Positions 24,515-63,284 of a stretch of 64,000 nt of DNA are shown piece by piece. The stretch comes from an uncultured Candidatus Saccharibacteria bacterium (GTDB taxonomy: Bacteria > Patescibacteriota > Saccharimonadia > Saccharimonadales > JACDBH01): assembly GCA_964644965.1 (NCBI GenBank), contig CAZXYN010000001.1, positions 64,282-128,281 of the forward strand, written 5' to 3'. Positions within the stretch are counted from its first letter, which is position 1, and each line of letters starts with the position of its first letter. The notes beneath the pieces are model-generated. The model saw nothing but the letters and a program-made list of their open reading frames with translations, ran no database searches and was not told where the DNA came from. The position numbers and the translations under genes are program-made.

Positions 24515-24587
24515 AGACCTTACTACTGCGGTTTACCGTGTAGTAGGTTAAAGACCTTACTACTGCGGTTTACCGTGTAGTAGGTTA
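24494..24587 (+). repeat. 37-bp tandem repeat, 2.5 copies, duplicating the last 7 codons and stop of pilB plus a hairpin
   Basis: GTTTACCGTGTAGTAGGTTAAAGACCTTACTACTGCG starts at 24494, 24531 and 24568 (third copy truncated). Each full unit carries the hairpin GTAGTAGG-ttaaaga-CCTTACTAC. Confidence 0.92.
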
Positions 24588-41955: not shown

Positions 41956-43242
41956 ATGAACGAACCGCTGAGAGGAAGCTTAAAAACAGACATGACTCTA
42001 TCAGAAGAATTGACCTGGCGCGGCTTTACAAACCAGACAACCTACAAGGACATCACTGCACTGGACGGCGAGCCAATTACCTTTTATTGGGGAGTAGATC
42101 CGTCAGCTGATTCGATGCAAATCGGTAATTTTGCAATCGCTATGATGGTGCGACACTTTATTAATCATGGCCATAAAGCAGTTTTGCTCGTAGGTGGCGC
42201 AACCGGTCTTATCGGTGATCCTGATGGCAAAAAGCAAGAGCGAGATCTCCAGGATGAAGAAACTATACAGGCCAATAAGGTTGCAATCGCCGGCCAGTAC
42301 GAGACAATTTTCGCCGGCCAGCAGTTTGACGTAGTTGATAATTACGATTGGTTTAGAAACATTAACTACCTAAGCTTCCTGCGTGATGTCGGCAAGCATA
42401 TGCCGATGCGAATGATGCTTGGCCGCGAATTTGTCCAAAGTCGTTTGAGTGACGACGGTGCTGGTATTAGCTATGCAGAGTTTAGCTATTCACTCATCCA
42501 GGGCTATGATTTTCTACATTTGCACAGAGAAAAAGGTGTTACGCTGCAGCTTAGTGGGGCAGACCAGTGGGGAAATAGCATTGCCGGTGTTGAGTTAATC
42601 AGGCGTATCACTGGCGACGAAACCCATGTCTGGACGGCACCGCTTGTAGTAAATAAGTCAACAGGCGTTAAATTTGGCAAGTCTGAAGATGGTGCGATCT
42701 GGTTAGATCCAAGCAAAACCTCTGTCTACAAGTTTTACCAATTTTGGCTCAACAGTGACGACGAGGGCGCGATTGATTACCTAAAGATCTATACACTTCT
42801 TGGCAAAGAACAAATTGACCAGATCACAATTGAGTTCGAGGCCGACAAATCATCTCGTGCTGCCCAGAAAATCCTAGCTTATGAAGTCACTAAGCTTATT
42901 CACGGTCAAGAAAGGGCTGATTCGGTCAAGCGTATCAGCGAAGTACTTTTCGGTGGTGCCGACTATTCTGCACTTAACGGTGGGGATTTCGACAGTCTGA
43001 CTAGGGAACTTCCGGTCGTAGAAGCTAAGCCAAACGAAACCACTATTATAGAGTCAATCGTGTCTGCCGGCTTAGCGTCATCAAACGGTGAAAGCCGTCG
43101 TTTTATAGATAGCGGCGCCATATATTTGAACGGTAATCCTGTCCAGACAGACAAAACAATCTTTGCCGACGCTGACATCATTGCCGGTCATGCTATTATT
43201 AGACGCGGCAAGAACACCTCTGCAGTTGTTCGATTTGTATAA
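41956..43242 (+). CDS. tyrS: tyrosine--tRNA ligase
   Basis: Class I fold with KFGKSE (KMSKS-type) and a C-terminal S4 domain. The true start may be the Met at 41992 (MTLSEEL). Confidence 0.9.
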   Translation: MNEPLRGSLKTDMTLSEELTWRGFTNQTTYKDITALDGEPITFYWGVDPSADSMQIGNFAIAMMVRHFINHGHKAVLLVGGATGLIGDPDGKKQERDLQDEETIQANKVAIAGQYETIFAGQQFDVVDNYDWFRNINYLSFLRDVGKHMPMRMMLGREFVQSRLSDDGAGISYAEFSYSLIQGYDFLHLHREKGVTLQLSGADQWGNSIAGVELIRRITGDETHVWTAPLVVNKSTGVKFGKSEDGAIWLDPSKTSVYKFYQFWLNSDDEGAIDYLKIYTLLGKEQIDQITIEFEADKSSRAAQKILAYEVTKLIHGQERADSVKRISEVLFGGADYSALNGGDFDSLTRELPVVEAKPNETTIIESIVSAGLASSNGESRRFIDSGAIYLNGNPVQTDKTIFADADIIAGHAIIRRGKNTSAVVRFV

Positions 43243-43262
43243 ACCTTAAATAGAGAACCTCC

Positions 43263-44066
43263 ATGTCAACCAAAAAACCAGCAAATAAGAATAATTCCCT
43301 CTCAAAAACGCAGCGAAAAAAAGCAGATCAGTACAACGACCCAAATCACAACTACCTTCACTATTGGGACGGTCGTGATTATGAGCATGACGCCGAAGTC
43401 ATAGCCCTAGACAAGATGCTTCGCGGCAAACACTTCAAGCATGCCGTAGATGTTGGTGGTGGTTATGGACGCCTTAGTGCAGTACTTACACAGTACGCTG
43501 ACAAGGTCACCCTGGCCGAGCCTTCTCAGCAGCAGTTAGATATTGGCGAGGAGTTTCTGAAAGATTTTCCGACTGTAGAGCGAAAGCTTCTCCAGGCAGA
43601 CGACCTCAAGTTCAAGGACGGCAGCGTCGACCTAGTAACTGTCGTACGAGTGCTTCATCACTTACCAGATCCATCACCAGAATTCGCCGAAATTGCTCGA
43701 ATTTTGGAACCAGGCGGCTATTTCTTCTTTGAATTTGCTAATTACTCAAACTTCAAAAACCGCGTCAAGCACACTCTAAAGGGCAAAAAAATGCCAGTCG
43801 AGCCAGTAAATATTCGTTCAGAGGAGCATGATACTGACGACGAAATTCCATTTGTGAATCACAATCCGAACACTGTCAAAAAACAGCTGGCACACGCTGG
43901 TCTGAAGGTAGAAAAAGTTCTGTCAGTATCAAACCTACGAAGTCCTAAGCTAAAGAAAATCATACCTCACGGTGGACTACTAGCCATCGAAAATCTTATG
44001 CAGAAGCCACTGGCTAAGTCATATTTTGGTCCAAGCACCGTATTCTTAGTCCGCAAGCCCAAATAG
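43263..44066 (+). CDS. class I SAM-dependent methyltransferase
   Basis: VDVGGGYGRLS motif I and VVRVLHHLPDP motif. Confidence 0.75.
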   Translation: MSTKKPANKNNSLSKTQRKKADQYNDPNHNYLHYWDGRDYEHDAEVIALDKMLRGKHFKHAVDVGGGYGRLSAVLTQYADKVTLAEPSQQQLDIGEEFLKDFPTVERKLLQADDLKFKDGSVDLVTVVRVLHHLPDPSPEFAEIARILEPGGYFFFEFANYSNFKNRVKHTLKGKKMPVEPVNIRSEEHDTDDEIPFVNHNPNTVKKQLAHAGLKVEKVLSVSNLRSPKLKKIIPHGGLLAIENLMQKPLAKSYFGPSTVFLVRKPK

Positions 44067-44094
44067 TTGCTAAATACGCAAAACGGTCGTATCA

Positions 44095-44619
44095 TTGAAA
44101 ACAATGTTTGACCCCGAGTTTAACTTCGATGTGTATGATGATTTCGAAGCGCCTGATGTTTCTGAAGTAATTCATCAACTAGACTGTCTAGCGACAGAAC
44201 TTTTAGGTTGCCCTAGCGAATCGCGACCGAATATCAGACATGAGGAACTACTGTCTGATGGCAGATTTTTTCAAGTATTGAGAAAACTGGACGTTAGTGG
44301 AAATGGTATAAGCAGCTATACTGTTACATTCTCTACATTATTTGACGTTGAAATAGATTTTGTTCATCTTATGGACGACAATGCGGACGAAGACGAGCAA
44401 GCCATACGTGAAATTACTGGGAAGGGCTTGTTCCTTTCGGCACATATACCTAGTAAGAGTATTGCAAGGTTCTTTGCACCTGCGACAGTTGAAGTAGATT
44501 CGGACGGTGATATTTCTTTCAATACCCTTATTGACTCAAGTGGCATATCTCCTGTATCAACACTACTCCCTACTGATTTACTAGTTATAGGTGAAGCACG
44601 ACGTACAGCATCGTACTAA
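44095..44619 (+). CDS. acidic hypothetical protein
   Basis: 174-aa ORF with no motif recognised. Confidence 0.45.
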   Translation: MKTMFDPEFNFDVYDDFEAPDVSEVIHQLDCLATELLGCPSESRPNIRHEELLSDGRFFQVLRKLDVSGNGISSYTVTFSTLFDVEIDFVHLMDDNADEDEQAIREITGKGLFLSAHIPSKSIARFFAPATVEVDSDGDISFNTLIDSSGISPVSTLLPTDLLVIGEARRTASY

Positions 44620-44639
44620 TTGCTATACTATAGCCACAG

Positions 44640-46664
44640 ATGGAGATTATGGAGCTAACAAGTGTTAAGGGCGTTGGTGAGCGCACTGCTAAGCAATTCG
44701 AAGGGCTTGGCATTCGCTCAGTTTGGGATTTATTACAATATACACCAAGGGACTATCAGGACTTCAGTACAATTACTCCTGTCAGTCAGACCAAACCAGG
44801 TCTAGTGACCATCCAGGCTGTCATAAAACAAGCCAGGGGCAGGTATGTTCGACGTGGCATGCACATTACAGAAGCCGTAGCCTCAGACAAATCTGGCAGT
44901 ATTAGGCTGGTTTGGTTCAATCAACCTTATCGAGCTGACGCTTTAAAGCCAAACCAAGAGTATTTTATTACTGGTAAGCTTGAGCTAAGGGCTGGCCGTT
45001 TTGCCATATCAAGCCCAAGTGTAGAGCTTGTGAGTGAGGTTCCGGTTCATACAGCACGCATCATACCGATTTACAGACAGAATAAAAATATCAACACGCG
45101 TCTGATTCGTAAGACAATGCGTCAGGCACTCGATAGCAGTGGTGATCTGCCGCAAGTATTACCGGAGCATATTCGTACTCAGTACAAATTGCTGTCGTAC
45201 CACGAAGCGTTAGAGCAGCTGCATTTTCCAAGCTCAGTTGACCAGCTAGACGATGCCAAACGCACGATGTCATTTATAGAAGTATTTGAGCTGATGTTGG
45301 CGTCAAAGATGCTCAAAAACGAGATTGCCAGCGAATTAGCGCCAGCGATTAACTTTGATCAGACTTTGGCAAAAAAGTTCGTAGCCTCGCTGCCATTCAA
45401 ACTAACAGATGCGCAGCGCCAAGCAATGTGGCAAATTCTGCAAGATCTAGAGAAGCCAATACCCGCCAATCGCTTGTTAGAGGGTGATGTAGGCTCTGGT
45501 AAGACGGTTGTGGCGACAATGGCGGCGATCATGGCTATCAGCAACGGCTACCAAGCGATATTCCTAGCACCCACCGAACTACTGGCGCGTCAGCATGCAG
45601 ACAGCCTGCTAGAGTTGCTAGAACCGCTAAAATACGACAAACACCTCAGCTTGCTTGTCGGTAGTCTAAAAACCGCTCAAAAGAAGCTAGCACACAAACA
45701 TCTGGCTGACGGTTCGATTAAGCTGGCCGTTGGTACTCATGCGCTTTTGCAAGATTTAGAGGTGAAGAACCTCGGACTAATTATAATCGACGAACAACAT
45801 CGTTTTGGCGTAGATCAGCGCAAAAAACTGCTGAAACAATCTGGCAAAGTTCCACATGTGCTTAGCATGACAGCAACACCAATACCGCGCTCACTAGCAC
45901 TAACACTTTACGGTGAGCTTGATATTTCACTACTTGATGCTTTGCCGCCTGGTCGCAAGCCAATTGATACTAGTATTATCTCGCCCAACAGTCGTAAGAA
46001 AATGGAACAGCACATTGCTGGTGAAGCAAAGGCTGGGCATCAGGTTTACGTAGTCTGTCCGGTAATCACAGAGGACAACAAGCTCCAAACCGTTAGTGTA
46101 GAGGAGACTTACAGACGTCTAAAGACTACATTCAAAGGATTAAATGTAGGCTTATTGCACGGCAAGCTCAAACAAGACGAAAAAACCGAAATCATGGAAA
46201 AATTTGTCGCCGGTCAGATAGATGTACTGGTAGCTACCACCGTAATTGAAGTCGGCGTCAACGTGCCGAACGCCACAATTATGGTTATAGAAGGCGCTGA
46301 TCGGTTTGGCTTGGCACAATTGCATCAGCTGCGTGGTCGAGTTGGTCGTAGTAGCGATCAAGCCTATTGCTACGTAGTGCCATCTGATAGCAAAGCACCA
46401 AGCAAGCGGCTACAATCTTTTGCGCGAATTACAGATGGATTTAAACTTGCCGAGATTGATCTAGAAATCAGAGGTCCAGGCGCAATTTACGGAACGCTCC
46501 AGCATGGTGATCTAGATCTGAAGTTTGCTGATCTAACAGACCACAAGCTAATTGCAAATGCCAGAAAAGCCGTAGATGAATTTGTAGGTACCGATTCACT
46601 AGATTCTTACCCAGAGCTTGGGCGTAGAGTGCGGGTCGCCCAGGCAGTGATTACTCTTAATTAA
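44640..46664 (+). CDS. recG: ATP-dependent DNA helicase RecG
   Basis: Wedge domain, GDVGSGKTVVA, DEQHRFG and QLRGRVGR. Confidence 0.95.
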   Translation: MEIMELTSVKGVGERTAKQFEGLGIRSVWDLLQYTPRDYQDFSTITPVSQTKPGLVTIQAVIKQARGRYVRRGMHITEAVASDKSGSIRLVWFNQPYRADALKPNQEYFITGKLELRAGRFAISSPSVELVSEVPVHTARIIPIYRQNKNINTRLIRKTMRQALDSSGDLPQVLPEHIRTQYKLLSYHEALEQLHFPSSVDQLDDAKRTMSFIEVFELMLASKMLKNEIASELAPAINFDQTLAKKFVASLPFKLTDAQRQAMWQILQDLEKPIPANRLLEGDVGSGKTVVATMAAIMAISNGYQAIFLAPTELLARQHADSLLELLEPLKYDKHLSLLVGSLKTAQKKLAHKHLADGSIKLAVGTHALLQDLEVKNLGLIIIDEQHRFGVDQRKKLLKQSGKVPHVLSMTATPIPRSLALTLYGELDISLLDALPPGRKPIDTSIISPNSRKKMEQHIAGEAKAGHQVYVVCPVITEDNKLQTVSVEETYRRLKTTFKGLNVGLLHGKLKQDEKTEIMEKFVAGQIDVLVATTVIEVGVNVPNATIMVIEGADRFGLAQLHQLRGRVGRSSDQAYCYVVPSDSKAPSKRLQSFARITDGFKLAEIDLEIRGPGAIYGTLQHGDLDLKFADLTDHKLIANARKAVDEFVGTDSLDSYPELGRRVRVAQAVITLN

Positions 46665-46711
46665 GTTACCAAAGGCGATTTTTGGACAGAACTAGACTAT
46701 AATAGAGTCAA

Positions 46712-47530
46712 ATGTACTCTGGACTCGTCCTAACAAAATATTCCGGACAATTAATGGGCGCGCATCAAAAGATTGACCGCGTCGCTCGTCGTCACCTGTC
46801 AGAACTTATAAAAACCGACGGTGGGTTTCCTAGTACCAAAGAAATCTTGCAGTTCGAGGGCAAAAACGGTCCGGACGGCATGAAGCGAAAGAGCCCTGGT
46901 TATGACGAGCCATGGCATTTTCTTGATCCTCTCAGTGGTGAAACAAGTGAGTTTCTCGAGATAATCGATGACCATTACAATGCTCTAGTCAAATATCTGA
47001 AGTCCGGCAATCAAGAACGAGCAGCTTTTGAGGCGGCTTGGTTAGCTCACGCTATAGTCGACGGATTAACGCCAGCCCACCATTACCCATATGAGCAACA
47101 TATTGAGAAACTTCGTGATGGCCAGGGTAAGGACAGTCGCAACAGCGTGTTTGACAAGCTTATTTTCAAGGGTGACAAGCCGTCGAGTACTTTAGTGAAC
47201 ACCGCCAAAGCCTACAGTCCCAAGGGCCCGCTAACAGCACATGTGGCCTTCGAAATGGGCTTCACGCTTTTGATTCGGCCTTTGCGTCTGCCTGATGCAC
47301 GACCAGCCGAGCGTGACATGGTAGAGATTGAAGAGCGTGGTTACAGAGGTTATTTTATGAATCGTGCTAGGGAAATTGCAGTACTGGGGTTATTCGAGCG
47401 CTATCTCAAGAATGGTTGGACGCCAAAACTTAGTAACGAAATGCGACATAAGCTGGCACCAACTATGGTAAAGACTGTAACTGTGCTGTGGTATGCAGCA
47501 GCTCTAGAGGCAGGCACATGCGAGTTATAG
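46712..47530 (+). CDS. hypothetical protein (His-rich putative metal site)
   Basis: 272 aa with HQKIDRVARRHL, WHFLD and WLAHAIVDGLTPAHH. The family is not confidently recognised. Confidence 0.5.
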   Translation: MYSGLVLTKYSGQLMGAHQKIDRVARRHLSELIKTDGGFPSTKEILQFEGKNGPDGMKRKSPGYDEPWHFLDPLSGETSEFLEIIDDHYNALVKYLKSGNQERAAFEAAWLAHAIVDGLTPAHHYPYEQHIEKLRDGQGKDSRNSVFDKLIFKGDKPSSTLVNTAKAYSPKGPLTAHVAFEMGFTLLIRPLRLPDARPAERDMVEIEERGYRGYFMNRAREIAVLGLFERYLKNGWTPKLSNEMRHKLAPTMVKTVTVLWYAAALEAGTCEL

Positions 47531-48054
47531 CCGGCAAACTTGGTGGCCGCAACTTTGAATCTGTTCATGGCCATCGCACACACCCGATGAGTGAGAAAAT
47601 CCGCGGTGCGCTATTTAATGCGCTGGGTGATATCAATGGACTCGATGTATTAGATCTGTACGGTGGCACCGGTGCGCTGAGTTTCGAGGCAATCAGCCGC
47701 GGAGCAGCTAGCGCAACTGTAATTGACGCAGACGCCAAGGCTCGCACTCAAATCATCCGAAACCGAGAATTACTGCAGATACCAGAAGACCAAGTCACTG
47801 CCGTGCGCGCCCATGCACATGCCTGGAGTCGACGACATCAGAACCAGCAGTTTGATATTGTCTTGCTTGATCCACCATATGACGCAGTCGAGCCCAAGGA
47901 ACTAATCCTGCTGACCAAACATGCCAAACCAGGTGGGTTGATTGTGCTGTCGCTGCCGCCAAACACCGGTTTCAAATACGCCGAAAGTCGCCAAGAATTA
48001 CTATCTCAAAAGACTTATGGTGACGCCGAGCTGCATTTTTATCGCCAGCTTTAG
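47518..48054 (+). CDS. rsmD: 16S rRNA (guanine966-N2)-methyltransferase RsmD
   Basis: MRVIAGKLGGR, VLDLYGGTGALSFEAISRGA and DPPY. 13-nt overlap with the upstream ORF. Confidence 0.85.
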   Translation: MRVIAGKLGGRNFESVHGHRTHPMSEKIRGALFNALGDINGLDVLDLYGGTGALSFEAISRGAASATVIDADAKARTQIIRNRELLQIPEDQVTAVRAHAHAWSRRHQNQQFDIVLLDPPYDAVEPKELILLTKHAKPGGLIVLSLPPNTGFKYAESRQELLSQKTYGDAELHFYRQL

Positions 48055-48058
48055 TGGC

Positions 48059-48676
48059 TTAATGGCTAGCTTTTTTTATCTCTTGGTAGCGAATCGGAAT
48101 CGCCAGCGAATAGATCATACCTAGGACTGCACTAATGGCTGCCCCGACTGGTCCAACAATGCCAAACACAACAATCAGAAATGTTACGGCGATAATGTCA
48201 TAAATCCGCCAGCTATGAGGCTTTGTCTGAGCGGCAGATAGTTCCATAGCTGCCCAAATTTTCATGTCCTTTTCTACTAGATAAAACGGCGCCAGAATGT
48301 AGCGCCTCATGAATATAAATCCAGGGATAATAAACAGTAGCAAGCCGCCGATAATGATTAGACCAGTCAGCAGTACTAGCCCGAGTAGTCGCCAAAAATA
48401 GCGGTATGAGCCGTCAAAGGCTTGTTGCAAAGTCATAATCTGACCCTTGCTGGTGTGAATATAAAGCTTTGTTAGCGGTGGCAATAGAGCAATGGTCAGC
48501 AGCCCGCCCAAGAGCCTAACTATATTCGGTCCAGATTCGTATATAGACACCTGGCCGATAGTTACTAAAATTCCAGGCAAAACCAACAACACGAAATAAG
48601 GCACCAAGTTGTCGCGAATTATCCTGATACTTGGTTCAAATAGATCAAACGCACTCTTGAACTGTGGCTTTGTCAT
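48059..48676 (-). CDS. polytopic membrane protein, unknown function
   Basis: 205 aa with about 5 hydrophobic helices. Confidence 0.5.
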   Translation of the reverse strand: MTKPQFKSAFDLFEPSIRIIRDNLVPYFVLLVLPGILVTIGQVSIYESGPNIVRLLGGLLTIALLPPLTKLYIHTSKGQIMTLQQAFDGSYRYFWRLLGLVLLTGLIIIGGLLLFIIPGFIFMRRYILAPFYLVEKDMKIWAAMELSAAQTKPHSWRIYDIIAVTFLIVVFGIVGPVGAAISAVLGMIYSLAIPIRYQEIKKASH

Positions 48677-48784
48677 ATCTCCTCCGTTTGTACATACTAT
48701 AGCCTTTTTGGGCGCTTGCCAGCAAAGATATGTACAAAAACCGCCAAAACTGCTAAAATCAATCTGTTAAATCAAATTCAATCT

Positions 48785-48868
48785 GCGGACGAGTGGTGGT
48801 TCGCTGTACAGCGGATGGTAGAGTTCCCCCGTAGTATCCTGTAAGGATTACTATCGGGGCACGCTAGT
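48785..48868 (+). pseudogene. relic 5' half of a tRNA-Leu gene (positions 1-31) carrying three insertions
   Basis: GCG[ga]CGAGTGGTGG[ttcgctgtacagcgga]TGGTAGA[37-nt hairpin]CACGCTAGT is collinear with the intact tRNA at 48962. Confidence 0.7.
48793..48822 (+). repeat. 30-nt perfect direct repeat, copy 1 (tRNA-Leu D-arm with a 16-nt palindrome in the D-loop)
   Basis: GTGGTGGTTCGCTGTACAGCGGATGGTAGA is identical to 48904-48933. Confidence 0.95.
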
Positions 48869-48903
48869 TCCCGTAGTAAAATGAATTTGTGGCTGATGGG
48901 GAT

Positions 48904-48933
48904 GTGGTGGTTCGCTGTACAGCGGATGGTAGA
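48904..48933 (+). repeat. 30-nt perfect direct repeat, copy 2
   Basis: Identical to 48793-48822. Flanks extend the tRNA D-arm homology (GAtGTGGTGG...TGGTAGACA). Confidence 0.95.
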
Positions 48934-48961
48934 CATTTAACAAGTAGTAAAGTTTTTGGAT

Positions 48962-49046
48962 GCGCGAGTGGTGGAATTGGTAGACACGCTAGTCTTAGGA
49001 ACTAGTGCCTCACGGCGTGAAGGTTCAAGTCCTTTCTCGCGCACCA
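48962..49046 (+). tRNA. tRNA-Leu, anticodon UAG, class II with long variable arm, CCA encoded
   Basis: Manual cloverleaf: acceptor GCGCGAG/CTCGCGC, D-arm GTG-GAATTGGTAGA-CAC, anticodon arm CTAGT-CTTAGGA-ACTAG, variable arm tGCCtcacGGCgt, T-arm GAAGG-TTCAAGT-CCTTT, then A-CCA. Confidence 0.92.
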
Positions 49047-49106
49047 AAACTTTTACTTCTTGTCGCTAGTCCCAGCAGTAAGCACTATGTGCTACTACTG
49101 GGCATA

Positions 49107-49233
49107 CTTAGGAACTAGTGCAGCAATGCGTGAATGGTCGTAATCTGCCTGTGGCAGATTACGTTTTCCTTGCTTGGCCGTCACAGAAATTTTAATTTCT
49201 GCTGACGCAAGTATAAAACAAGTCCTTTCTCGC
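49107..49233 (+). pseudogene. relic 3' part of a tRNA-Leu gene, split by about 97 nt of foreign hairpin-rich sequence
   Basis: CTTAGGAACTAGTGC (49107-49121, tRNA positions 32-46) and CAAGTCCTTTCTCGC (49219-49233, T-loop to acceptor 3' strand) are exact matches to the intact gene. Confidence 0.7.
49139..49167 (+). terminator. rho-independent terminator-like hairpin downstream of tRNA-Leu
   Basis: CGTAATCTGCC-tgt-GGCAGATTACG (11 bp, perfect) followed by TTTT. Confidence 0.6.
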
Positions 49234-49304
49234 ATTTGGTGCTAAAATGAGTTCTAGCGTGGGCAAAACTTCACCAAGCAAGACATATGGGAGGCACTTT
49301 TTAG

Positions 49305-49862
49305 ATGAAAGTTTCAGAGCAAAAGCAGCTTTTATCAGCAGTAGAAGTGGGTGGGTGGAAGCTAGAACATGACAAAGAAAAGGCTATTGTAGTGGCTGGT
49401 TCACTGTTGGCAGAACAAGTAGCCAGGCTGGTTGAGGTGGTGCCAATACGCGGCGAAAGAAAAGGTGTGATTTGGGACCTGATAGATCAGGATAAAACTA
49501 CTGGCAAATCATTGCTGTTCAGTTTGCGTACAGACTCGTATAATAAAAAGGGTCTGGCTGATTATAAAGAAATTGATCTAAGGATAGGCCAAGGTGTACA
49601 AATTGACGGTGAACCTTATAAATTGGATACTATTGTTCTTTGCGAAGATTTTAGGCGCAATCTGACTTTTGTCGGAGGTCGCAAGATACAGCACTGGGGT
49701 AACCAAGGTATCCGTGGTTTGTTTGCTGCACCAGCGGTTCCAGAGGAGCTGCCAGTATACGATACGGTTGATGATTTCCTACCTGATTTGGAAACACTCT
49801 GCCCAATTACCGGAGAAGGAATCGCAGATAAGCTAGCCAGGTCGTTCCACAGCGTTGAATAA
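49305..49862 (+). CDS. hypothetical protein
   Basis: 185 aa with a GGGAGG Shine-Dalgarno upstream. No motif recognised. Confidence 0.5.
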   Translation: MKVSEQKQLLSAVEVGGWKLEHDKEKAIVVAGSLLAEQVARLVEVVPIRGERKGVIWDLIDQDKTTGKSLLFSLRTDSYNKKGLADYKEIDLRIGQGVQIDGEPYKLDTIVLCEDFRRNLTFVGGRKIQHWGNQGIRGLFAAPAVPEELPVYDTVDDFLPDLETLCPITGEGIADKLARSFHSVE

Positions 49863-49910
49863 TTGCTATGGCACTTATGCTATACTGACTCCAACAAGAG
49901 GGAGCAATTT

Positions 49911-50489
49911 ATGGCCAAAGACATACAATTTGTTGAGCAGCCCGGCGAACGCACAGGTAGCAAGATACATGTTAACGAACGAGAAGAATTTTTTGCAGCG
50001 CTTGAACGCGCCGAGAGCTTGGTCAAGGGCGAATCACCCAGGGCAAAGGTGTTAATCTACGTGGCAGCAATCGAACGCAGCCTACAGGAAGTGCTGCGTA
50101 ATGTCATGGTGCCGAGCAACCAAAAAGAAGACACTCTGCTCGGTAGCGCCATCAGCACGTTCGAATCACAGATTGATCTGGCTTTTCGCATCGGTGTGAT
50201 TAGTCATAATCTATGGCGTGATCTGCACATCTTGCGCGAGTTGCGTGATGATTGCTTTGGCCGTATAGAAAACTTCAGCTTTGAGCACTCGGCTATCAAG
50301 TCCAGTGTAGCTATGCTAGAGCGCAACGTTGGCAAACAAGCATTTACCGGATTACCAGTGCTACGCATGGACACAGAGGACAAGTTTGCATTCCTGGCGC
50401 GTACATTCCTGGTCACTATAGACAATGTACAGGAAAAGGTCGGTAGACTAAGCGAAGCCAAGGTAGAAAAGCTCTATCGTGACGACTAG
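49911..50489 (+). CDS. hypothetical helical protein with a degenerate MtlR/HEPN-like C-terminal pattern
   Basis: ATG at 49911 after GGGAG. FESQIDLAFRIGVISHNLWRDLHILRELRDDCFG resembles the F..I.L....G.I......L..LR..RN..aH pattern, but RN/H is replaced by RD/F. Confidence 0.45.
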   Translation: MAKDIQFVEQPGERTGSKIHVNEREEFFAALERAESLVKGESPRAKVLIYVAAIERSLQEVLRNVMVPSNQKEDTLLGSAISTFESQIDLAFRIGVISHNLWRDLHILRELRDDCFGRIENFSFEHSAIKSSVAMLERNVGKQAFTGLPVLRMDTEDKFAFLARTFLVTIDNVQEKVGRLSEAKVEKLYRDD

Positions 50490-50503
50490 TGTGATAAATA
50501 TCA

Positions 50504-50532
50504 TTGATTTGTATTGACAAGTGTGGTATAAT
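50504..50532 (+). promoter_or_regulatory. strong sigma70-type promoter (TTGATT-17 nt-TGgTATAAT), near-duplicate of the module at 7494
   Basis: ttgatttgtattgacaagtgtggtataat shares TTGACA-n-GTGTG-n-TATAAT-n-TATAC with 7503-7528. Confidence 0.5.
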
Positions 50533-50562
50533 ATACAAAAGTAGGGTCAGATAGACCAGTAA

Positions 50563-50591
50563 ACGTCAGATGTAGTAATCTGGCGTTTTTT
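50563..50591 (+). terminator. rho-independent terminator about 30 nt downstream of the 50504 promoter and upstream of hisS
   Basis: ACGTCAGAT-gtagta-ATCTGGCGT (9 bp including one G-U) followed by TTTTTT. Confidence 0.7.
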
Positions 50592-50624
50592 ATACCCTTA
50601 AAATCCCGTATAATAAACTTAACT

Positions 50625-51941
50625 ATGAAGCTATCAACCCAGAGCTATAAAGGCGCGCGTGATTTCTACCCAGAGGACATGCGCGTGCGCAATAGTGTGT
50701 TTGCGTCCTGGCGCCAGGTTTGCCAGAGCTTTGGTTATGAAGAATATGATGCACCAATAATTGAGCCTGTAGAGTTATTTGCAGCCAAATCTGGTGATGA
50801 ACTAGTCAACGAACAGTCTTATAACTTCACCGATCGCGGTGGCCGCGAAATTATGCTGCGACCAGAGATGACACCGAGCGTATCTAGGCTAGTGGCTGGT
50901 AGGCGACAGGAATTGCCGTTGCCGATTCGCTGGTTTTCTATTCCGTCGTGCTGGCGTTATGAGCGACCACAAAAGGGTCGTGGACGTGAATTCTACCAGC
51001 TAAATGTAGATTTGTTTGGTGTAGACAGCGTTGAAGCAGAAATTGAGATGATACAGATAGTTGACGCTGTCATGAAGTCGTTCCAGGCTAGGCCTGAAAT
51101 GTACGAAATACGCGTCAACAGCCGCAACTTTATGAATTACCTGCTAGGCGACTGGCTAGGACTTAATGAGGTTGAGCAAAAGACGATATCACGGCTAATC
51201 GACCGCATGCACAAGCTTCCTGGGCCAGAGTTTGTTGGTCTGATTGAGGCGTCGATTCCGCCAACTCTGCGTGAGCAAGGCGCTGCTCAGAAACTACTAG
51301 ATGTTTTACAGGTAAAGAAACTAGACGAACTGCCAGAAGATTTGCGTGTATCTGAACCTGTCAAAAACATGGTATCTATCATTGAAAAGATTGAAACAGC
51401 TGGCATTAGCAATCTGGCCTTTGACATCACCCTAATGCGCGGGCTTGATTACTACACTGACTTTGTGTTTGAGGTGTTTGATACCAATCAGGACAATAAC
51501 CGCTCGATGTTTGGCGGCGGCCGCTACGATGGGCTGGTTGGGCTGTTTGGTGTCGAGCCGATCCCGACTGTTGGCTTTGCCATGAGTGATGTAATGCTGA
51601 TGGAATTTCTAAAGGGCTGGAATCTTGTGCCAGACGCAAGAACAGATACAGAAGTAGTGGTAATACCAATTGGCGATGTTATGGATCAGGCGCAAAAGAT
51701 TGCAGCCGAACTGCGTGAAATGAGTGTGAATGTAGCATTAGATATTACTAATCGCAAAACTGACAAACAGCTCAAAAATGCTATAAAATCAGGTGTTGCC
51801 TACGTGCTGTTTGTAGGCGAGCAAGAGATTGAATCTGGCCAGTACAAACTCAAGGATATCAGGACCAGTACCGAACAAACTCACTCCATCCAGCGGATTG
51901 TTAGCATTATAAAGGACCGTAGGAAGCAAGGCGGTGTTTAG
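50625..51941 (+). CDS. hisS: histidine--tRNA ligase
   Basis: MLRPEMTPS (motif 1 region), RWFSIPSCWRYERPQKGRGREFYQLNVD (motif 2), GGGRYDGL (motif 3) and an anticodon-binding C-terminus. Confidence 0.95.
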   Translation: MKLSTQSYKGARDFYPEDMRVRNSVFASWRQVCQSFGYEEYDAPIIEPVELFAAKSGDELVNEQSYNFTDRGGREIMLRPEMTPSVSRLVAGRRQELPLPIRWFSIPSCWRYERPQKGRGREFYQLNVDLFGVDSVEAEIEMIQIVDAVMKSFQARPEMYEIRVNSRNFMNYLLGDWLGLNEVEQKTISRLIDRMHKLPGPEFVGLIEASIPPTLREQGAAQKLLDVLQVKKLDELPEDLRVSEPVKNMVSIIEKIETAGISNLAFDITLMRGLDYYTDFVFEVFDTNQDNNRSMFGGGRYDGLVGLFGVEPIPTVGFAMSDVMLMEFLKGWNLVPDARTDTEVVVIPIGDVMDQAQKIAAELREMSVNVALDITNRKTDKQLKNAIKSGVAYVLFVGEQEIESGQYKLKDIRTSTEQTHSIQRIVSIIKDRRKQGGV

Positions 51942-52185
51942 CTATGCGCCAATCGAGTTATCACTTCTAGAATTATTTTTCTTCTTTCTGGCTGTGTCTC
52001 TGCCATTCTTTTTTATAGCTGGGGTAATCTTATTCGTTATTATTAAGCTGCGTGAGCCTAAAGCTGTTCAAGAGTCCCAACCCGTTGCAAGTATTAAAAA
52101 GCCTCGTGCATTTATCGCACTGTGCACTGCGCTGCTGTTTTTGTTAGGGCTAGGCGTGCTTATGGTTTTTATCGGAAATCTTTGA
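51934..52185 (+). CDS. small two-helix membrane protein
   Basis: 83 aa with a GTG start overlapping the hisS end. Two hydrophobic segments. Confidence 0.4.
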   Translation: MFSYAPIELSLLELFFFFLAVSLPFFFIAGVILFVIIKLREPKAVQESQPVASIKKPRAFIALCTALLFLLGLGVLMVFIGNL

Positions 52186-52226
52186 GCTGTGGAAAAACAA
52201 CAGACAATCTGTTAGAGTAGGTACCT

Positions 52227-53510
52227 ATGCATATAACTCGAACCAATTCAGAACCAACCAAGACAAAACTAATCATCAGGGCTGATGAAAAGGAGTTAGC
52301 AAGCGCCAAGAAGCTGGCACTCAATCATCTGTCATCTCAGGTCAAAGTTCCTGGCTTCCGCGAAGGCAAAGTGCCCATCAGTGTGGTAGAAAAAAATGTA
52401 GATCAAAATGCCTTACAATCAGAGGTAATCGAGCACACTATTAACAATCTGTATGCTACCGCGGTACGTGAAGAAAATTTGCGACCAGTGGCCAATCCGC
52501 AAATCGCAATCAAGAAGTTCGTACCATTTACAGAGCTAGAATTTGAAGCAGACATAGATGTAATTGGCGAGATTAAGCTTGCTGACTACAAGAAGATCAA
52601 GCTAGCCAAGGAACCAGTCAAGGTAGAGGCCAAAGACATTGATAATGTCATTAAGTCGCTACAAGCTCGGGCTGCACAGCGCAAAGACGTTACTCGAGCA
52701 GCCAAGAACGGCGATGAAGTTACAATTGATTTCAAGGGTACAGACGCCAAGGGCGAATCGGTTCAGGGTGCTGATGCTGCAGACTACCCGTTGATACTTG
52801 GCAGCAATGCTTTTATTCCTGGATTTGAGGAAGAAATTGTAGGACTTAAGGCTGGCGACAGCAAAGAGTTCAAGGTGACTTTTCCGAAAGATTATGTTGC
52901 CAAGGCTCTTCAGAACAAGAAAGTCACCTTCGCTGTCACCGTACATAAGATCGCAGAACTGGTAGAACCAAAGGTAGATGATGAATTTGCAGCCGCCGTC
53001 GGACCATTCAAATCTGTCAAAGAGCTAAAAGAAGACATCAAAAAGCAACTAGTCTTTGAGCGCGAACGTGACGAGACCAACAAATACGACAATGAACTGC
53101 TAGAAAAGATTGCCAGCAAATCTAATATTGAGATTCCGAAAATGCTGGTCGATGAGCAGATCGACAGAATCGAACAAGAAGAAAAACAAAACCTAATGTA
53201 CCGAGGCCAAACCTGGGAAGAACACCTGAACGAAGAAGGCATCACGGCTGATGAGCACCGCGAGCAAAAGCGCCCAGCAGCCGAGCTACGGGTAAAGATC
53301 GGTGTTCTATTATCTGAGGTAGCAGAAGCCGAAGGCGTACAAGTCACTCCAGAAGAAGTAGAAGTTCGCTTGCAGCTAATGAAGGGCCAATATCAAGACC
53401 CTACCGCTCAAGAAGAGCTAAGCAAGCCAGAGGCAATCCGTGATATTGAGACCCGTATTCGTACCGAAAAAACCCTAGAAAAACTACGCAATTATGCCGG
53501 GGCTAAATAA
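52227..53510 (+). CDS. tig: trigger factor
   Basis: VPGFREGKVP ribosome-binding motif, a central FKBP-like domain (DFKGTDAKGE...) and a C-terminal helical arm. Confidence 0.9.
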   Translation: MHITRTNSEPTKTKLIIRADEKELASAKKLALNHLSSQVKVPGFREGKVPISVVEKNVDQNALQSEVIEHTINNLYATAVREENLRPVANPQIAIKKFVPFTELEFEADIDVIGEIKLADYKKIKLAKEPVKVEAKDIDNVIKSLQARAAQRKDVTRAAKNGDEVTIDFKGTDAKGESVQGADAADYPLILGSNAFIPGFEEEIVGLKAGDSKEFKVTFPKDYVAKALQNKKVTFAVTVHKIAELVEPKVDDEFAAAVGPFKSVKELKEDIKKQLVFERERDETNKYDNELLEKIASKSNIEIPKMLVDEQIDRIEQEEKQNLMYRGQTWEEHLNEEGITADEHREQKRPAAELRVKIGVLLSEVAEAEGVQVTPEEVEVRLQLMKGQYQDPTAQEELSKPEAIRDIETRIRTEKTLEKLRNYAGAK

Positions 53511-53958
53511 TCCTGAAAATTTGGGTGGTGAACTATCTGACAGAAAAGAAGAGCTGTATGAAATCTTCGCAAATAGACTGGCAGCAGATTTTCCTGCCTG
53601 TACAGAGGATATAATTGAGCTAGATGAATCCGGGCTAGATGTAGATGAACGTCTTGATAGGTTAGACGATCTGACTAATCTGATGTACAAGATGAAAAGC
53701 AACGCTAGCCAGACAATAAATCCTGAAATAACGAGTCATTGGTCTAATCCAGAACTCATTCTAGAAGAATCGTATATTACAGATGAAGATATGAGGCGTA
53801 GAGCTTCTATTGTAGGAAGAATTTCGCTGCTTGCGAGTGTTGGTTTTATGGCTTCGGCCGCTGTTCAGTCTATGAATGGTGACTATCAACAAGCTCTAGC
53901 TGCGACAGGCATGAGCGCGGTAGCTCTAGTCACTGGGATATCATTTGCGAAGGATTAG
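53494..53958 (+). CDS. hypothetical protein with acidic N-terminus and C-terminal membrane segments
   Basis: 154-aa ORF overlapping the tig end by 17 nt. Confidence 0.4.
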   Translation: MPGLNNPENLGGELSDRKEELYEIFANRLAADFPACTEDIIELDESGLDVDERLDRLDDLTNLMYKMKSNASQTINPEITSHWSNPELILEESYITDEDMRRRASIVGRISLLASVGFMASAAVQSMNGDYQQALAATGMSAVALVTGISFAKD

Positions 53959-54031
53959 CACTCAGGCTTGACGAGTGCCAAACTACAGTCGTATACTAGA
54001 GACACTTGATTCCAATAAGGAGACATATTCT

Positions 54032-54628
54032 ATGACATCACCAACAAACGTACTCGTACCAACCGTTATCGAACAAGAGGGTCGCATTGAGCGAGCCTAT
54101 GATATTTATTCTAGGTTGCTCAAGGACCGAATCATCTTCTTGGGTGAAGATGTTAATCCGCATACTGCCAACCTAATCGTGGCTCAGATGTTATTCCTAG
54201 ACAATCAGTCTTCTGGCAAGCCGATTAACTTCTATATCAATAGTCCTGGCGGTAGTGTCTATGATGCGTTTGCTATCTATGACACCATGCAGTTCGTCAA
54301 ATCGCCAGTTCATACCTATGGAATTGGTGTTCAGGCCTCTGCAGCAGCTTTTTTGTTAAGCTCTGGCGCTAAGGGCAAACGATTCTTACTGCCACACGCA
54401 ACTGTCATGATTCACCAGCCTAGTTCAGGTACACGCGGTAAGGTGACAGATCAGGAAATTGATCTGCGCGAAGCTCTACGACTCAAAAAACTACTTGAAG
54501 GCATTGTAGCCAAAAACACTGGTAAGCCAGCTAAGAAAATCCATGAAGACATGGAGCGTGACTATTGGATGGATGCCGCAGAAGCCAAAAAGTACGGCTT
54601 AGTCGACAAAGTTATTGAATCGCTCTAG
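54032..54628 (+). CDS. clpP: ATP-dependent Clp protease proteolytic subunit
   Basis: RIIFLGEDVN, GIGVQASAAAFLLSSG (catalytic Ser) and MIHQPS (catalytic His). ATG at 54032 after AAGGAG. Confidence 0.92.
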   Translation: MTSPTNVLVPTVIEQEGRIERAYDIYSRLLKDRIIFLGEDVNPHTANLIVAQMLFLDNQSSGKPINFYINSPGGSVYDAFAIYDTMQFVKSPVHTYGIGVQASAAAFLLSSGAKGKRFLLPHATVMIHQPSSGTRGKVTDQEIDLREALRLKKLLEGIVAKNTGKPAKKIHEDMERDYWMDAAEAKKYGLVDKVIESL

Positions 54629-54802
54629 ATATTAGCACTAGCAAAAAGCCAGCATTTCTGATAAAGTAGCCTTAGAAATAGGTAGTTTACTACCTTATAG
54701 GTATCTAGCGGTATTTATAACTAGACTTCTTATCTGAAGTCTTTCCGTTTGCAGATATAGGAGCACGTATTTTATTAAGTTTGCTGCTAAAAAGGACGCA
54801 CT

Positions 54803-55576
54803 ATGGCTATATACGAGCTTCAGCCCGAACCAAACCAATATGAATTTCTGCAATCAGAGCAAGAACTTGAAGTACAAGGCTTGCTAGCAATCGCGGCAGA
54901 TAGCCTGTACAGAGTAGTCTCATCAAATCGCAACCTATTAGAAGCACGACAGCTAGATGGTGAGCTGCGCATATTCGGCGAATCATCGGTTGGTGCAATT
55001 GAAAATGCTCGAGAACAGCGGTTTCGACATGCTGTGAAGCCTACGGCCGAACGCTTTTATATTAGAAGCCAAGAAGGAAGATTTGTTGGCAGTGCAGTTG
55101 TAGGTAATCAGCGCCTTACGCGCACCCGAACACGATTTCCTCTAGTCCAGCGTTCAGAAAGCGAAGTGTTTCCTTATGCAAGCCCTAATATATTTGCCTG
55201 GACGGCAGAAAAGGAAATGGAAGACGGTACGCTTAATCTAATCTATCAATCACTTGTCAAAAGGTTTGCAGGTAGCGTATCAACCGATAACAGCCCAAAG
55301 GCTTGGGCAATCGAACCAGAAAGTTCACCGACAGCAATTCACGAAGCGATTGCTCAAAATACTGAGCTTACATTTATAAATAGTAATTCTTACAGAAACC
55401 CAAATCAGTTTAATCAGACCCCAGATAGAACCAAACTTTACGCTCGCCTACACAGTCAATGGTTAACCAAGCACGGTCGTTTGAAGGAACTCAAGGCTAA
55501 CGAGGTCAGCACCTTCACGGCTGAAGGCAAAAATTCAGCTCAAACTATCATTGACACAGCGCCAGAAACTAGGTAA
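54803..55576 (+). CDS. hypothetical protein
   Basis: 257-aa ORF with no motif recognised. Confidence 0.45.
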   Translation: MAIYELQPEPNQYEFLQSEQELEVQGLLAIAADSLYRVVSSNRNLLEARQLDGELRIFGESSVGAIENAREQRFRHAVKPTAERFYIRSQEGRFVGSAVVGNQRLTRTRTRFPLVQRSESEVFPYASPNIFAWTAEKEMEDGTLNLIYQSLVKRFAGSVSTDNSPKAWAIEPESSPTAIHEAIAQNTELTFINSNSYRNPNQFNQTPDRTKLYARLHSQWLTKHGRLKELKANEVSTFTAEGKNSAQTIIDTAPETR

Positions 55577-55676: not shown

Positions 55677-55692
55677 TCCGCTGTACAGCGGA
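55677..55692. repeat. 16-nt perfect palindrome TCCGCTGTACAGCGGA, 121 nt upstream of rpoB
   Basis: The same 18-mer AATCCGCTGTACAGCGGA recurs at 63267-63284. A variant, TTCGCTGTACAGCGGA, occurs at 48800 and 48911. Confidence 0.95.
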
Positions 55693-63268: not shown

Positions 63269-63284
63269 TCCGCTGTACAGCGGA
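63269..63284. repeat. 16-nt perfect palindrome TCCGCTGTACAGCGGA, 90 nt downstream of rpoC
   Basis: Identical to 55677-55692. Confidence 0.95.

Follow-up and report, generated by a model that had tools for sequence, protein, structure and literature searches.

Partial duplicates of tRNA genes are reportedly left by site-specific integration as attL/attR scars, as Reiter et al. in 1989 and Williams in 2002 are said to have described. Split, permuted and multi-intron tRNA genes occur in Archaea and red algae (Nanoarchaeum, Caldivirga and Cyanidioschyzon), and we know of no bulge-helix-bulge motif or splicing system of this kind in bacteria. Very small mobile repeated elements of cyanobacteria are said to have been described by Elhai et al. 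in 2008, and homology-facilitated illegitimate recombination of imported DNA in competent bacteria by de Vries and Wackernagel in 2002, while natural competence of Saccharibacteria was reportedly the subject of Wang et al. in 2023. Small palindromic dispersed repeats also include the REP/REPIN class, the subject of PMC3116915, and MITEs. A literature search brought up no account of tRNA genes that are interrupted or nested in Saccharibacteria. Here we describe the tRNA-Leu(UAG) locus in a 64-kb stretch of DNA (the window) from an uncultured Candidatus Saccharibacteria bacterium. With a probability of about 0.6, the locus is best explained as a single working gene for tRNA-Leu(UAG) that lies within the wreck left by the earlier tRNA-Leu(UAG) gene of the same locus. 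The pieces of the wreck cover tRNA positions 1-32, 7-25, 26-32, 33-65 and 65-79 and are separated by hairpin-forming DNA.

As in integration scars, an intact gene has fragments of its own tRNA on both sides, the breakpoints lie at the anticodon loop and the T loop, one tRNA locus is used repeatedly in the clade, and the gene slot downstream is variable. Unlike such scars, the window has 5′ fragments upstream and a nesting between tRNA positions 25 and 26 (25|26), with no integrase called within about 6 kb on either side. The elements here are 16-150 nt long, and the duplication in the relative L013 (loci of relatives bear L numbers throughout) also covers the terminator. With its missing recombinase, its upstream 5′ fragments and its nesting, the window locus falls outside this class. 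Like REP/REPIN repeats and MITEs, a 16-nt palindrome of the window is intergenic, far over-represented and always full, and a relative is without it at an orthologous site. It differs from them in being only 16 nt long, and no RAYT or transposase was identified among the genes of the locus neighbourhood, the only region scanned. In addition, 2 of its 4 copies lie in the D loop of a tRNA pseudogene, the host has a reduced genome of the Candidate Phyla Radiation (CPR), and the hairpin inserts of the locus (H1, H2 and module Z, described below) are not dispersed in the window. Split and permuted tRNAs are similar in that a tRNA is broken at loop/stem junctions by hairpin-forming sequence, but the relic in the window has no acceptor stem or CCA that could be rebuilt, its pieces are duplicated, and an intact gene coexists with it. 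Finally, in the recombination of imported DNA, the invariant stretch of positions 8-47 could anchor another allele and produce partial duplications with different acceptor stems; this process we infer throughout, no donor sequence having been identified.

The live tRNA-Leu(UAG) gene and the homology in its flanks

The sole tRNA in the window, found by both ARAGORN and Rfam, is an intact tRNA-Leu of 85 nt, as an earlier reading of this DNA from its letters (the sequence-only reading) had stated.

48962-49046, plus strand: live tRNA-Leu(UAG) gene, acceptor strands GCGCGAG/CTCGCGC, called by ARAGORN as Leu(tag)

The gene scores 58.1 bits against Rfam RF00005 (threshold 29), forms 7 of 7 acceptor pairs and encodes its CCA, as expected of a tRNA gene. 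Its variable arm is GCCTCACGGC, and its body equals that of the L013 tRNA except for compensatory changes in the acceptor; the window, L013 and L019 agree throughout positions 8-47. In the long open reading frames (ORFs) of the window, CTA is used more than any other Leu codon (258 of 893; CTA and CTG together make up 46%). Therefore, a working tRNA-Leu(UAG) would be needed at every moment, and the gene could not be lost without a replacement.

Both flanks of the gene repeat parts of it exactly. Positions in the tRNA are given in linear numbering, in which the 31|32 of the sequence-only reading (standard numbering) is 32|33.

48790-48799: upstream exact same-strand match to tRNA positions 4-13
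48816-48822: upstream exact same-strand match to tRNA positions 17-23
48860-48868: upstream exact same-strand match to tRNA positions 24-32
48904-48910: upstream exact same-strand match to tRNA positions 7-13
48927-48935: upstream exact same-strand match to tRNA positions 17-25
49064-49071: downstream exact same-strand match to tRNA positions 26-33
49107-49121: downstream exact same-strand match to tRNA positions 33-47
49128-49134: downstream exact same-strand match to tRNA positions 54-60
49219-49233: downstream exact same-strand match to tRNA positions 65-79

Five matches are at least 9 nt long and together come to 58 nt. In 1000 dinucleotide-preserving shuffles of the flanks, their count, their total and the longest of them were never reached (shuffle maxima of 2 matches, 20 nt and 12 nt, respectively), and the largest match total in 206 other stretches of the window was 11 nt. 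The claim that the collinear matches are beyond chance is thus borne out, and the homology of the two sides does meet at one coordinate, 32|33.

Pieces of the relic

The matches fall within the following pieces of a relic tRNA gene.

48787-48868, plus strand: relic copy O, positions 1-32, with the acceptor strand GGACGAG, the D arm and the 5′ strand of the anticodon stem; two interruptions
48904-48935, plus strand: second relic D-arm piece, positions 7-25, with a palindrome at 48911-48926
49064-49070, plus strand: relic 5′ strand of the anticodon stem, CGCTAGT, positions 26-32, tRNA-contiguous with the piece ending at 48935
49107-49139, plus strand: relic positions 33-65, with the anticodon loop including TAG, the 3′ strand of its stem, the variable arm and the 5′ strand of the T stem
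49219-49233, plus strand: relic 3′ piece, positions 65-79, with the T loop, the 3′ strand of the T stem and the first 5 nt of the acceptor 3′ strand; 15-nt exact repeat

Copy O is an in-order copy of the 5′ part of the tRNA, interrupted by a 16-nt palindrome in place of the AAT of the D loop (48800-48815) and by a 37-nt hairpin, all of which had been recognised before. A third interruption, a 2-nt GA insertion, had also been proposed. Alignment to the leaders of the relatives shows the acceptor strand GGACGAG (48787-48793) to be a different allele instead, so that copy O spans linear positions 1-32 from 48787. This strand is near the GGGCGAG of L011 and L125, whereas the live gene has GCGCGAG. 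The 5′ end of copy O aligns with the tRNA starts of the relatives; positions 1-32 run into non-tRNA sequence, and the live gene is complete and separate.

The extra D-arm fragment that had been noted was found at 48904-48935 with the same palindrome; 30 nt of it repeat 48793-48822 exactly and in direct orientation, at a spacing of 111. The strand CGCTAGT at 49064-49070 had been overlooked; it makes this D-arm piece and CGCTAGT contiguous around the live gene. Together with the sequence that follows, it gives an 18-nt repeat (CGCTAGT plus CCC.G.AGTAA) matching 48862-48879 at 15 of 18 nt (83%). When the junction of CGCTAGT plus hairpin was compared with the copy-O junction, shared stem strand included, the score was reached by none of 500 shuffles.

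Downstream, 49107-49121 and 49219-49233 are exact copies as described, but the gap of about 97 nt between them is too long: the homology continues to position 65 as a 33-nt repeat at 82% (49107-49139), its first 15 nt exact, which leaves a gap of 79 nt. The relic variable arm (GCAGCAATGC) keeps its pairing by a compensatory change, with GCA/TGC and not GCC/GGC. At the 3′ end, the homology stops before the discriminator and CCA, and ATTTGG stands in place of ACCA. By comparison, CCA is encoded by every tRNA-Leu(UAG) of the clade with its 3′ end read (window, L013, L019, L121, L122, L125, L022 and L025).

The pieces are collinear and nearly free of point mutations, as would be expected if they were parts of a functional, multiply interrupted or split tRNA from which the inserts are removed and whose pieces are joined after transcription. 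An anticodon stem can form between 48864-48868 and 49114-49118, and the inserts lie in loops or at stem-loop junctions and fold as hairpins. However, with the inserts removed, the relic forms only 5 of 7 acceptor pairs and 4 of 5 T-stem pairs and lacks both the discriminator and CCA. It contains two D arms, it would share its transcript with an intact isoacceptor, and to our knowledge bacteria have no enzyme system for such tRNA splicing. Rfam searches at E<=10 gave no second tRNA match over the relic and no intron family in 48600-49400 or in L013, the inserts being simple hairpins of 16-79 nt. We consider a functional split tRNA, which the sequence-only reading had listed as a long shot, hardly credible. 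On these pairings, the relic is best described as a pseudogene scar field, for which a tRNA fold is predicted to be impossible.

Nesting of the live gene at relic positions 25|26

The live gene does not border directly on the relic pieces around it but is bracketed by inverted repeats.

48940-48959, plus strand: left inverted-repeat arm ACAAGTAGTAAAGTTTTTGG, 17 of 20 nt equal to the reverse complement of 49044-49063
49044-49063, plus strand: right inverted-repeat arm CCAAAACTTTTACTTCTTGT, overlapping the CCA end of the tRNA

The pairing score of the two 20-nt arms was reached by none of 2000 shuffles. With them, the live tRNA makes up a 128-nt unit (48936-49063) with a predicted fold of -49.9 kcal/mol (z -5.45), in which a helix of leader and trailer prolongs the acceptor stem. 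The ends of this unit adjoin relic positions 25 and 26.

The sequence-only reading had explained the locus by a single clean insertion of 238 bp (48869-49106) at 31|32. This model is not borne out in that form, as the segment holds a second relic D arm and a second stem strand with a hairpin, relic positions 25 and 26 stand on the two sides of the live gene and its arms, and module Z and the 3′ fragment are common to relatives. In a related explanation, the 238-bp segment was left by an integrative element that brought its own tRNA-Leu, inserted at the anticodon stem/loop junction and was mostly deleted later. The meeting of both sides at 32|33 is in line with such an element, and the sequences after the two copies of CGCTAGT resemble each other, as at a pair of att-type junctions. 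In L013, a 19-nt direct repeat from the T loop to the 3′ end resembles attL/attR, and the ORF directly 3′ of the tRNA is different in each relative. Within tRNA genes, the anticodon loop and the T loop are reported to be the classic sublocations used by integrases (Williams 2002). Patescibacteria are known to carry integrated prophages with att sites (PMC13059738). However, no integrase is called within about 6 kb and the bounded DNA is at most 238 bp. Integration leaves 3′ fragments downstream of the gene, whereas the window has 5′ fragments upstream of it, and its resident 5′ half has not been joined again to a supplied 3′ half. The relic pieces inside the segment bracket the live gene at 25|26, which a simple insert does not predict, and the L013 duplication takes in the terminator, beyond the usual att core. 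As to the integrase-scar repeat itself, the window pieces start at 33 and 65 and both end before the 3′ end, and L013 has the full 19-nt repeat from the T loop to CCA. An integrative element is, on balance, an unlikely origin of the segment.

Ancestral position and promoter

Upstream of the relic, a promoter scan gave one site.

48731-48759, plus strand: promoter-like site TGTACA-17-TAAAAT with a TG extension

The promoter-like block TGTACAAAAAC...ATGCTAAAAT is common to all relatives and stands before the tRNA in L014, L121, L125, L122 and L012. The tRNA 5′ end follows about 25-30 nt after the block in L011, L012, L019 and L122, and L121 is similar; L125 and L014 have an extra hairpin-rich leader between the block and the tRNA. 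The plain state of the locus, consisting of promoter, one 85-nt tRNA, terminator and next gene, is found in L019, L122 and L125. In the window, the ancestral tRNA spot is occupied by GGACGAG-TGGTGG..., the start of the relic. Because the single tRNA-Leu(UAG) of the relatives starts at that spot behind the conserved promoter, the shattered copy is best read as the ancestral gene of the locus.

The whole complex has one promoter-like site upstream and one terminator-like site, the hairpin hpA, downstream. Since these are the sole sites of their kind, the first lying upstream of the relic, transcription of the live tRNA probably starts at the old promoter and reads through the relic, giving a precursor of about 400 nt that ends at hpA. 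Ordinary tRNA processing would then release the live tRNA from this read-through precursor.

A separate observation concerns the leaders of two relatives: in L013 (2563-2687) and L014 (795-919), a hairpin-rich insert of about 125 nt lies between the promoter and the intact tRNA, and its AGTGTGGAAACC is faintly D-arm-like.

Hairpin inserts of the relic

The DNA that separates the relic pieces consists mainly of hairpins.

48823-48859, plus strand: 37-nt hairpin H1 (fold -17.1 kcal/mol, z -3.5), which separates relic positions 23 and 24
48869-48903, plus strand: 35-nt spacer X1, after relic position 32; weak fold, z -1.2
49071-49106, plus strand: 36-nt hairpin H2, at the 32|33 junction from anticodon stem to loop; fold -16.2 kcal/mol, z -3.0
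49139-49218, plus strand: module Z, 79-nt insert in the relic T loop, made up of hpA, linker, hpB and spacer
49139-49163, plus strand: hpA, terminator-like hairpin, z -7.4; its first base, C49139, ends the relic piece before it as well
49164-49179, plus strand: conserved linker TTTTCCTTGCTTGGCC between hpA and hpB
49180-49206, plus strand: hpB hairpin, z -5.2

The predicted folds agree with the 37-nt hairpin described within the upstream relic (H1, -17.1 kcal/mol) and with the terminator-like hairpin and second hairpin described between the two downstream pieces (hpA and hpB). In the interval 48600-49400, hpA is the only terminator-like site. X1 is weakly like H2, H1 and the left arm of the live gene, with which it shares GTAGTAA (p 0.02-0.06 per pair). 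A single family of H1, H2, X1 and the live-gene arms, defined by GTAGTA(A) near their 5′ ends, was tried and rejected. A regular expression for this family matched nothing outside the tRNA locus, and the tandem repeat at 24494 was dismissed as a member, GTAGTA being shared there merely as Val-Val codons at a gene end.

Module Z was seen next to tRNA-Leu(UAG) only, in the window, L013/14 and L121. A link of module Z to viral contigs was rejected, as the 20 matches of its 16-mer there lie in unrelated contexts and are in line with chance. The flanks of module Z are themselves complementary: 49124-49136 on the left (AATGCGTGAATGG) is nearly the reverse complement of 49224-49236 on the right (CCTTTCTCGCATT). 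They close a long predicted stem (-46.3 kcal/mol, z -4.8) with extra AATGCG/CGCATT pairing past the T stem.

The 16-nt palindrome

Four copies of the palindrome that interrupts the relic D loops lie in the window, two of them away from the tRNA locus.

48800-48815, no strand assigned: 16-nt palindrome TTCGCTGTACAGCGGA, copy 1, replacing AAT of the relic D loop; fold -4.9 kcal/mol
48911-48926: palindrome copy 2, inside the second relic D-arm piece
55677-55692, no strand assigned: dispersed palindrome copy TCCGCTGTACAGCGGA, in the spacer upstream of rpoB
63269-63284, no strand assigned: dispersed palindrome copy TCCGCTGTACAGCGGA, downstream of rpoC

The 4 sites in 64 kb compare with 0.01 expected, in keeping with a small dispersed repeat. 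The half-site never stands alone in the window, where only the full palindrome is found; on this ground, a DNA-uptake-type signal was rejected. In the spacer before rpoB, the window reads AATAA[TCCGCTGTACAGCGGA]GTACG and L013 reads AATAA[ATC]GTACG; L019 and L020 are also without the palindrome, so this is an empty site in the relatives. Similarly, the D loop of the relic reads GTGG[pal]TGGTAGA against GTGG[AAT]TGGTAGA in the live gene. The palindrome was absent from the 100 compared loci, and no clear target-site duplication was visible at the pre-rpoB site or the D-loop site. Because a filled and an empty orthologous site can be compared, the palindrome is taken to behave like a very small dispersed insertion. 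A regulatory site gained several times is the weaker alternative.

Rearrangement at tRNA-Leu(UAG) in the clade

An ARAGORN survey of 105 sequences (727 kb) yielded 22 tRNAs, 9 of which are tRNA-Leu(UAG). Partial self-copies, counted as exact matches of at least 11 nt within 500 nt of the tRNA, were found at tRNA-Leu(UAG) only, namely in the window, L013/L014, L022 and L025. L013 and L014 have the same HisS protein and were counted as one lineage. Self-copies thus occur in 4 of 8 lineages for tRNA-Leu(UAG) against 0 of 13 for other tRNAs (Fisher p = 0.012, from a small sample); with L121, which enters under looser criteria, the count is 5 of 8 (p = 0.003).

A module-Z-type arrangement lies 3′ of the intact tRNA in L013/L014 (HisS 79%) and L121 (75%). 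The shared order is GGTC, a terminator-like hairpin, GTTTTC(C/T)TTGCTTGGCC, a second hairpin, a spacer of 12-15 nt and a tRNA-Leu 3′ fragment. The first stem is different in all three lineages, and the second is identical between L013 and L121 and different in the window, yet all still form hairpins. The L013 fragment reproduces the 19 nt from the T loop to CCA without a mismatch, and behind it the terminator occurs once more (54 nt, 89% identical). The L121 fragment has the acceptor allele CTCGCGGC, as opposed to CCCCGGC in its own tRNA.

The other two lineages have longer copies. In L022 (1573-1770), a 5′-truncated copy (positions 17-85, 37 nt exact) lies 47 nt downstream of the live gene and differs from it in the T arm and the acceptor 3′ strand (CGTCCCC vs CTCGCCC). 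In L025 (1-275; HisS 50%), a copy 45 nt upstream of the live gene is identical over 8-62, has an 89-nt two-hairpin insert in the T loop and continues over 64-75, where it ends. The copy lies at a contig end, and its repeat length (55) is a common assembler k-mer size, so it may extend further. L025 and L121 have the GGT| junction in common, and there the first hairpin of the L025 insert is like hpA of L121; no alignment was obtained for the remainder of the insert. Relic and live gene have different acceptor alleles in the window, L121 and L022. Taken together, the comparison points clearly to the tRNA-Leu(UAG) locus as a site of recurrent rearrangement in the clade. Repeated targeting of this tRNA, by small hairpin insertion elements or by an integrative element, had been suggested before. 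The first part of this idea holds insofar as the locus has been remodelled repeatedly and one palindrome is dispersed with an empty site; an integrative element finds no such backing, since no integrase was called about 6 kb to either side.

Besides the module-Z-type arrangement, L013 (2736-2843) and L121 (2228-2315) have a block in which the 3′ part of the tRNA and the left terminator arm are mirrored by an inverted, diverged copy. The two arms of about 50 nt are about 73% complementary and are centred on the terminator loop. A minus-strand tRNA at this place, 3′ of the tRNA, was considered and rejected, as Rfam gave no match and the block is the inverted diverged copy of the tRNA-Leu 3′ part.

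Tandem layouts are also seen in the clade, with the interrupted copy before the live gene in L025 and the live gene before the 5′-truncated copy in L022. They raise the question whether the window locus has no nesting at all and arose by several tandem duplications through hairpin slippage, after which deletions trimmed the outer copies. The leaders before copy O, the second D-arm piece and the live gene are weakly alike, and the window has a perfect 37-nt tandem repeat elsewhere. On the other hand, two independent deletions would have to end at the adjacent positions 25 and 26, and the same 32|33 junction with a similar hairpin would be needed in two copies. Moreover, the live copy is without the palindrome and the hairpins common to the other copies, and the acceptor alleles differ. 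We consider such a history quite unlikely.

The tandem repeat elsewhere in the window (24494-24587) is a perfect 37-nt repeat of 2.5 units (100% matches). It copies the last codons (…EVYRVVG*) of a 534-aa ORF (22910-24514) plus a hairpin containing its stop codon, and shows that recent hairpin-associated tandem duplication occurs in this genome.

Genomic setting and soundness of the assembly

The spacer that holds the tRNA locus is 628 bp long and extends from a UPF0259-family gene to a 185-aa ORF.

48059-48676, minus strand: UPF0259-family membrane protein gene, left neighbour of the tRNA spacer
49305-49862: orphan 185-aa ORF, right neighbour of the tRNA spacer

No homologue of the 185-aa ORF turned up among 5.8 billion proteins, so it offers no anchor for comparison. 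The ORF directly 3′ of the tRNA-Leu locus is different in each relative and marks a variable slot beside the tRNA, at the following positions.

Window 49305-49862; L013 3010-3237; L019 5369-6145; L121 2449-3118; L122 3035-3286; L125 2663-3079: ORFs of the variable slot

The ORF after this slot (about 190 aa) and hisS are both conserved across the relatives. Five relatives share with the window the gene order RecG, PLC-like, RsmD, UPF0259, tRNA-Leu, small ORFs, HisS, trigger factor and ClpP. HisS homologues of 65-70% identity are labelled Candidatus Saccharibacteria or Saccharimonadales in their sources, which places the window in a Saccharibacteria (TM7, Patescibacteria) genome, with 45.8% GC. 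The nearest relatives are distant, with at most 82% identity in HisS and at most 49% in the UPF0259-family protein, and a search of species-representative genomes with the latter gave distant matches alone (27-40% identity), the lineage itself not being represented there. In a HisS scan of metagenomes, the relatives among the matches listed had at most 56% identity, and those at 79% were not among them; two distant loci in this list proved informative. L015 (HisS 81%) was left out because its upstream part is not syntenic, and L124 and L127 because their sequence begins too close to hisS.

A chimeric or collapsed assembly over the conserved tRNA could in principle mimic such a locus, and the sequence-only reading had named it as a possible refutation. 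Short-read contigs of two runs do end inside the tRNA, at 48993/48997 and 48980. However, the Logan assemblies of these two sequencing runs, made independently, equal window positions 43059-48997 and 48980-54862 at 100% and include every relic piece on both sides. Judged from L019/L020 of the same run series, the breaks probably fall where 31-mers become common to the tRNA of a co-occurring relative. The gene order over the join agrees with that of the five syntenic relatives. An assembly artefact is very improbable.

Discussion

Based on these comparisons, we propose a history for the embedding of the live tRNA-Leu(UAG) gene in the wreck of its predecessor. A segment with a complete tRNA-Leu gene of a slightly different allele (GCGCGAG vs GGACGAG) would have landed inside the resident gene. 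The landing would have destroyed and replaced the resident gene in one step; for a single-copy gene on which the main Leu codon depends, any other kind of event would have passed through a lethal intermediate. The segment may have been a local copy, or the imported DNA of a relative that recombined through the invariant tRNA body with positions 8-47 as the anchor. The redundant halves would then have decayed by insertion and not by point mutation, gaining the palindrome, the H hairpins and a second, locally duplicated stretch of about 75 nt with the D arm, the anticodon-stem strand and the hairpin. The T-loop module Z with the 3′ fragment may be an older or recurrent scar, since it is common to relatives.

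Several points weigh against this history. The locus does not preserve the order of events. Over 30 nt, the two D-arm pieces agree at every base (100%), whereas the adjoining spacers are about 60% alike; a single recent duplication therefore fails, and gene conversion or a separate small duplication is needed. Module Z is common to L013 and L121 (HisS 75-79%), so part of the relic either predates the lineage or was separately acquired, which is awkward with the other relic pieces being nearly without point mutations. Recurrent insertion of module Z into the T loop would account for this, as would conversion that keeps the relic like the live gene. No integrase, recombinase or transposase is among the genes called in 43-55 kb of the window (about 6 kb to either side), and there is no target-site duplication around the 128-nt unit. 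As regards mobility, H1, H2 and module Z have no further copy in the 64-kb window; the 37-nt hairpin had been proposed for a search of the full genome, and H1 turned up nowhere else in the window. The pairwise p values behind the rejected family of H1, H2, X1 and the live-gene arms (0.02-0.06) are marginal. Finally, no intermediate state was found among the available relatives, all of which are distant (HisS at most 82%).

A more far-reaching reading takes the live tRNA with its 20-nt arms as a self-contained, movable cassette that replaces its own cognate gene by insertion, so that the old copy is killed and complemented at once. The tRNA-Leu(UAG) gene would then be the dedicated target of miniature hairpin elements (module Z and the H hairpins) driving its repeated turnover in situ. 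We put this forward as speculation with a small chance of being right.

The embedding of a working tRNA-Leu(UAG) gene in its predecessor means that a tiny, streamlined Saccharibacteria genome retains tRNA wreckage of about 450 bp on both sides of the gene for its commonest Leu codon (CUA). For annotation, it is a warning that tRNA fragments at this locus are scars and not split genes. Partial copies or the shared hairpin module in at least 5 lineages of the class point to a specific recurrent process at one gene, for which targeted insertion, recombination of imported DNA and hairpin-driven duplication are the candidates. If the process were identified, it would show how an essential single-copy tRNA gene is replaced in place without a lethal intermediate, and a very small palindromic repeat would join the short list of mobile-looking DNA in the CPR.

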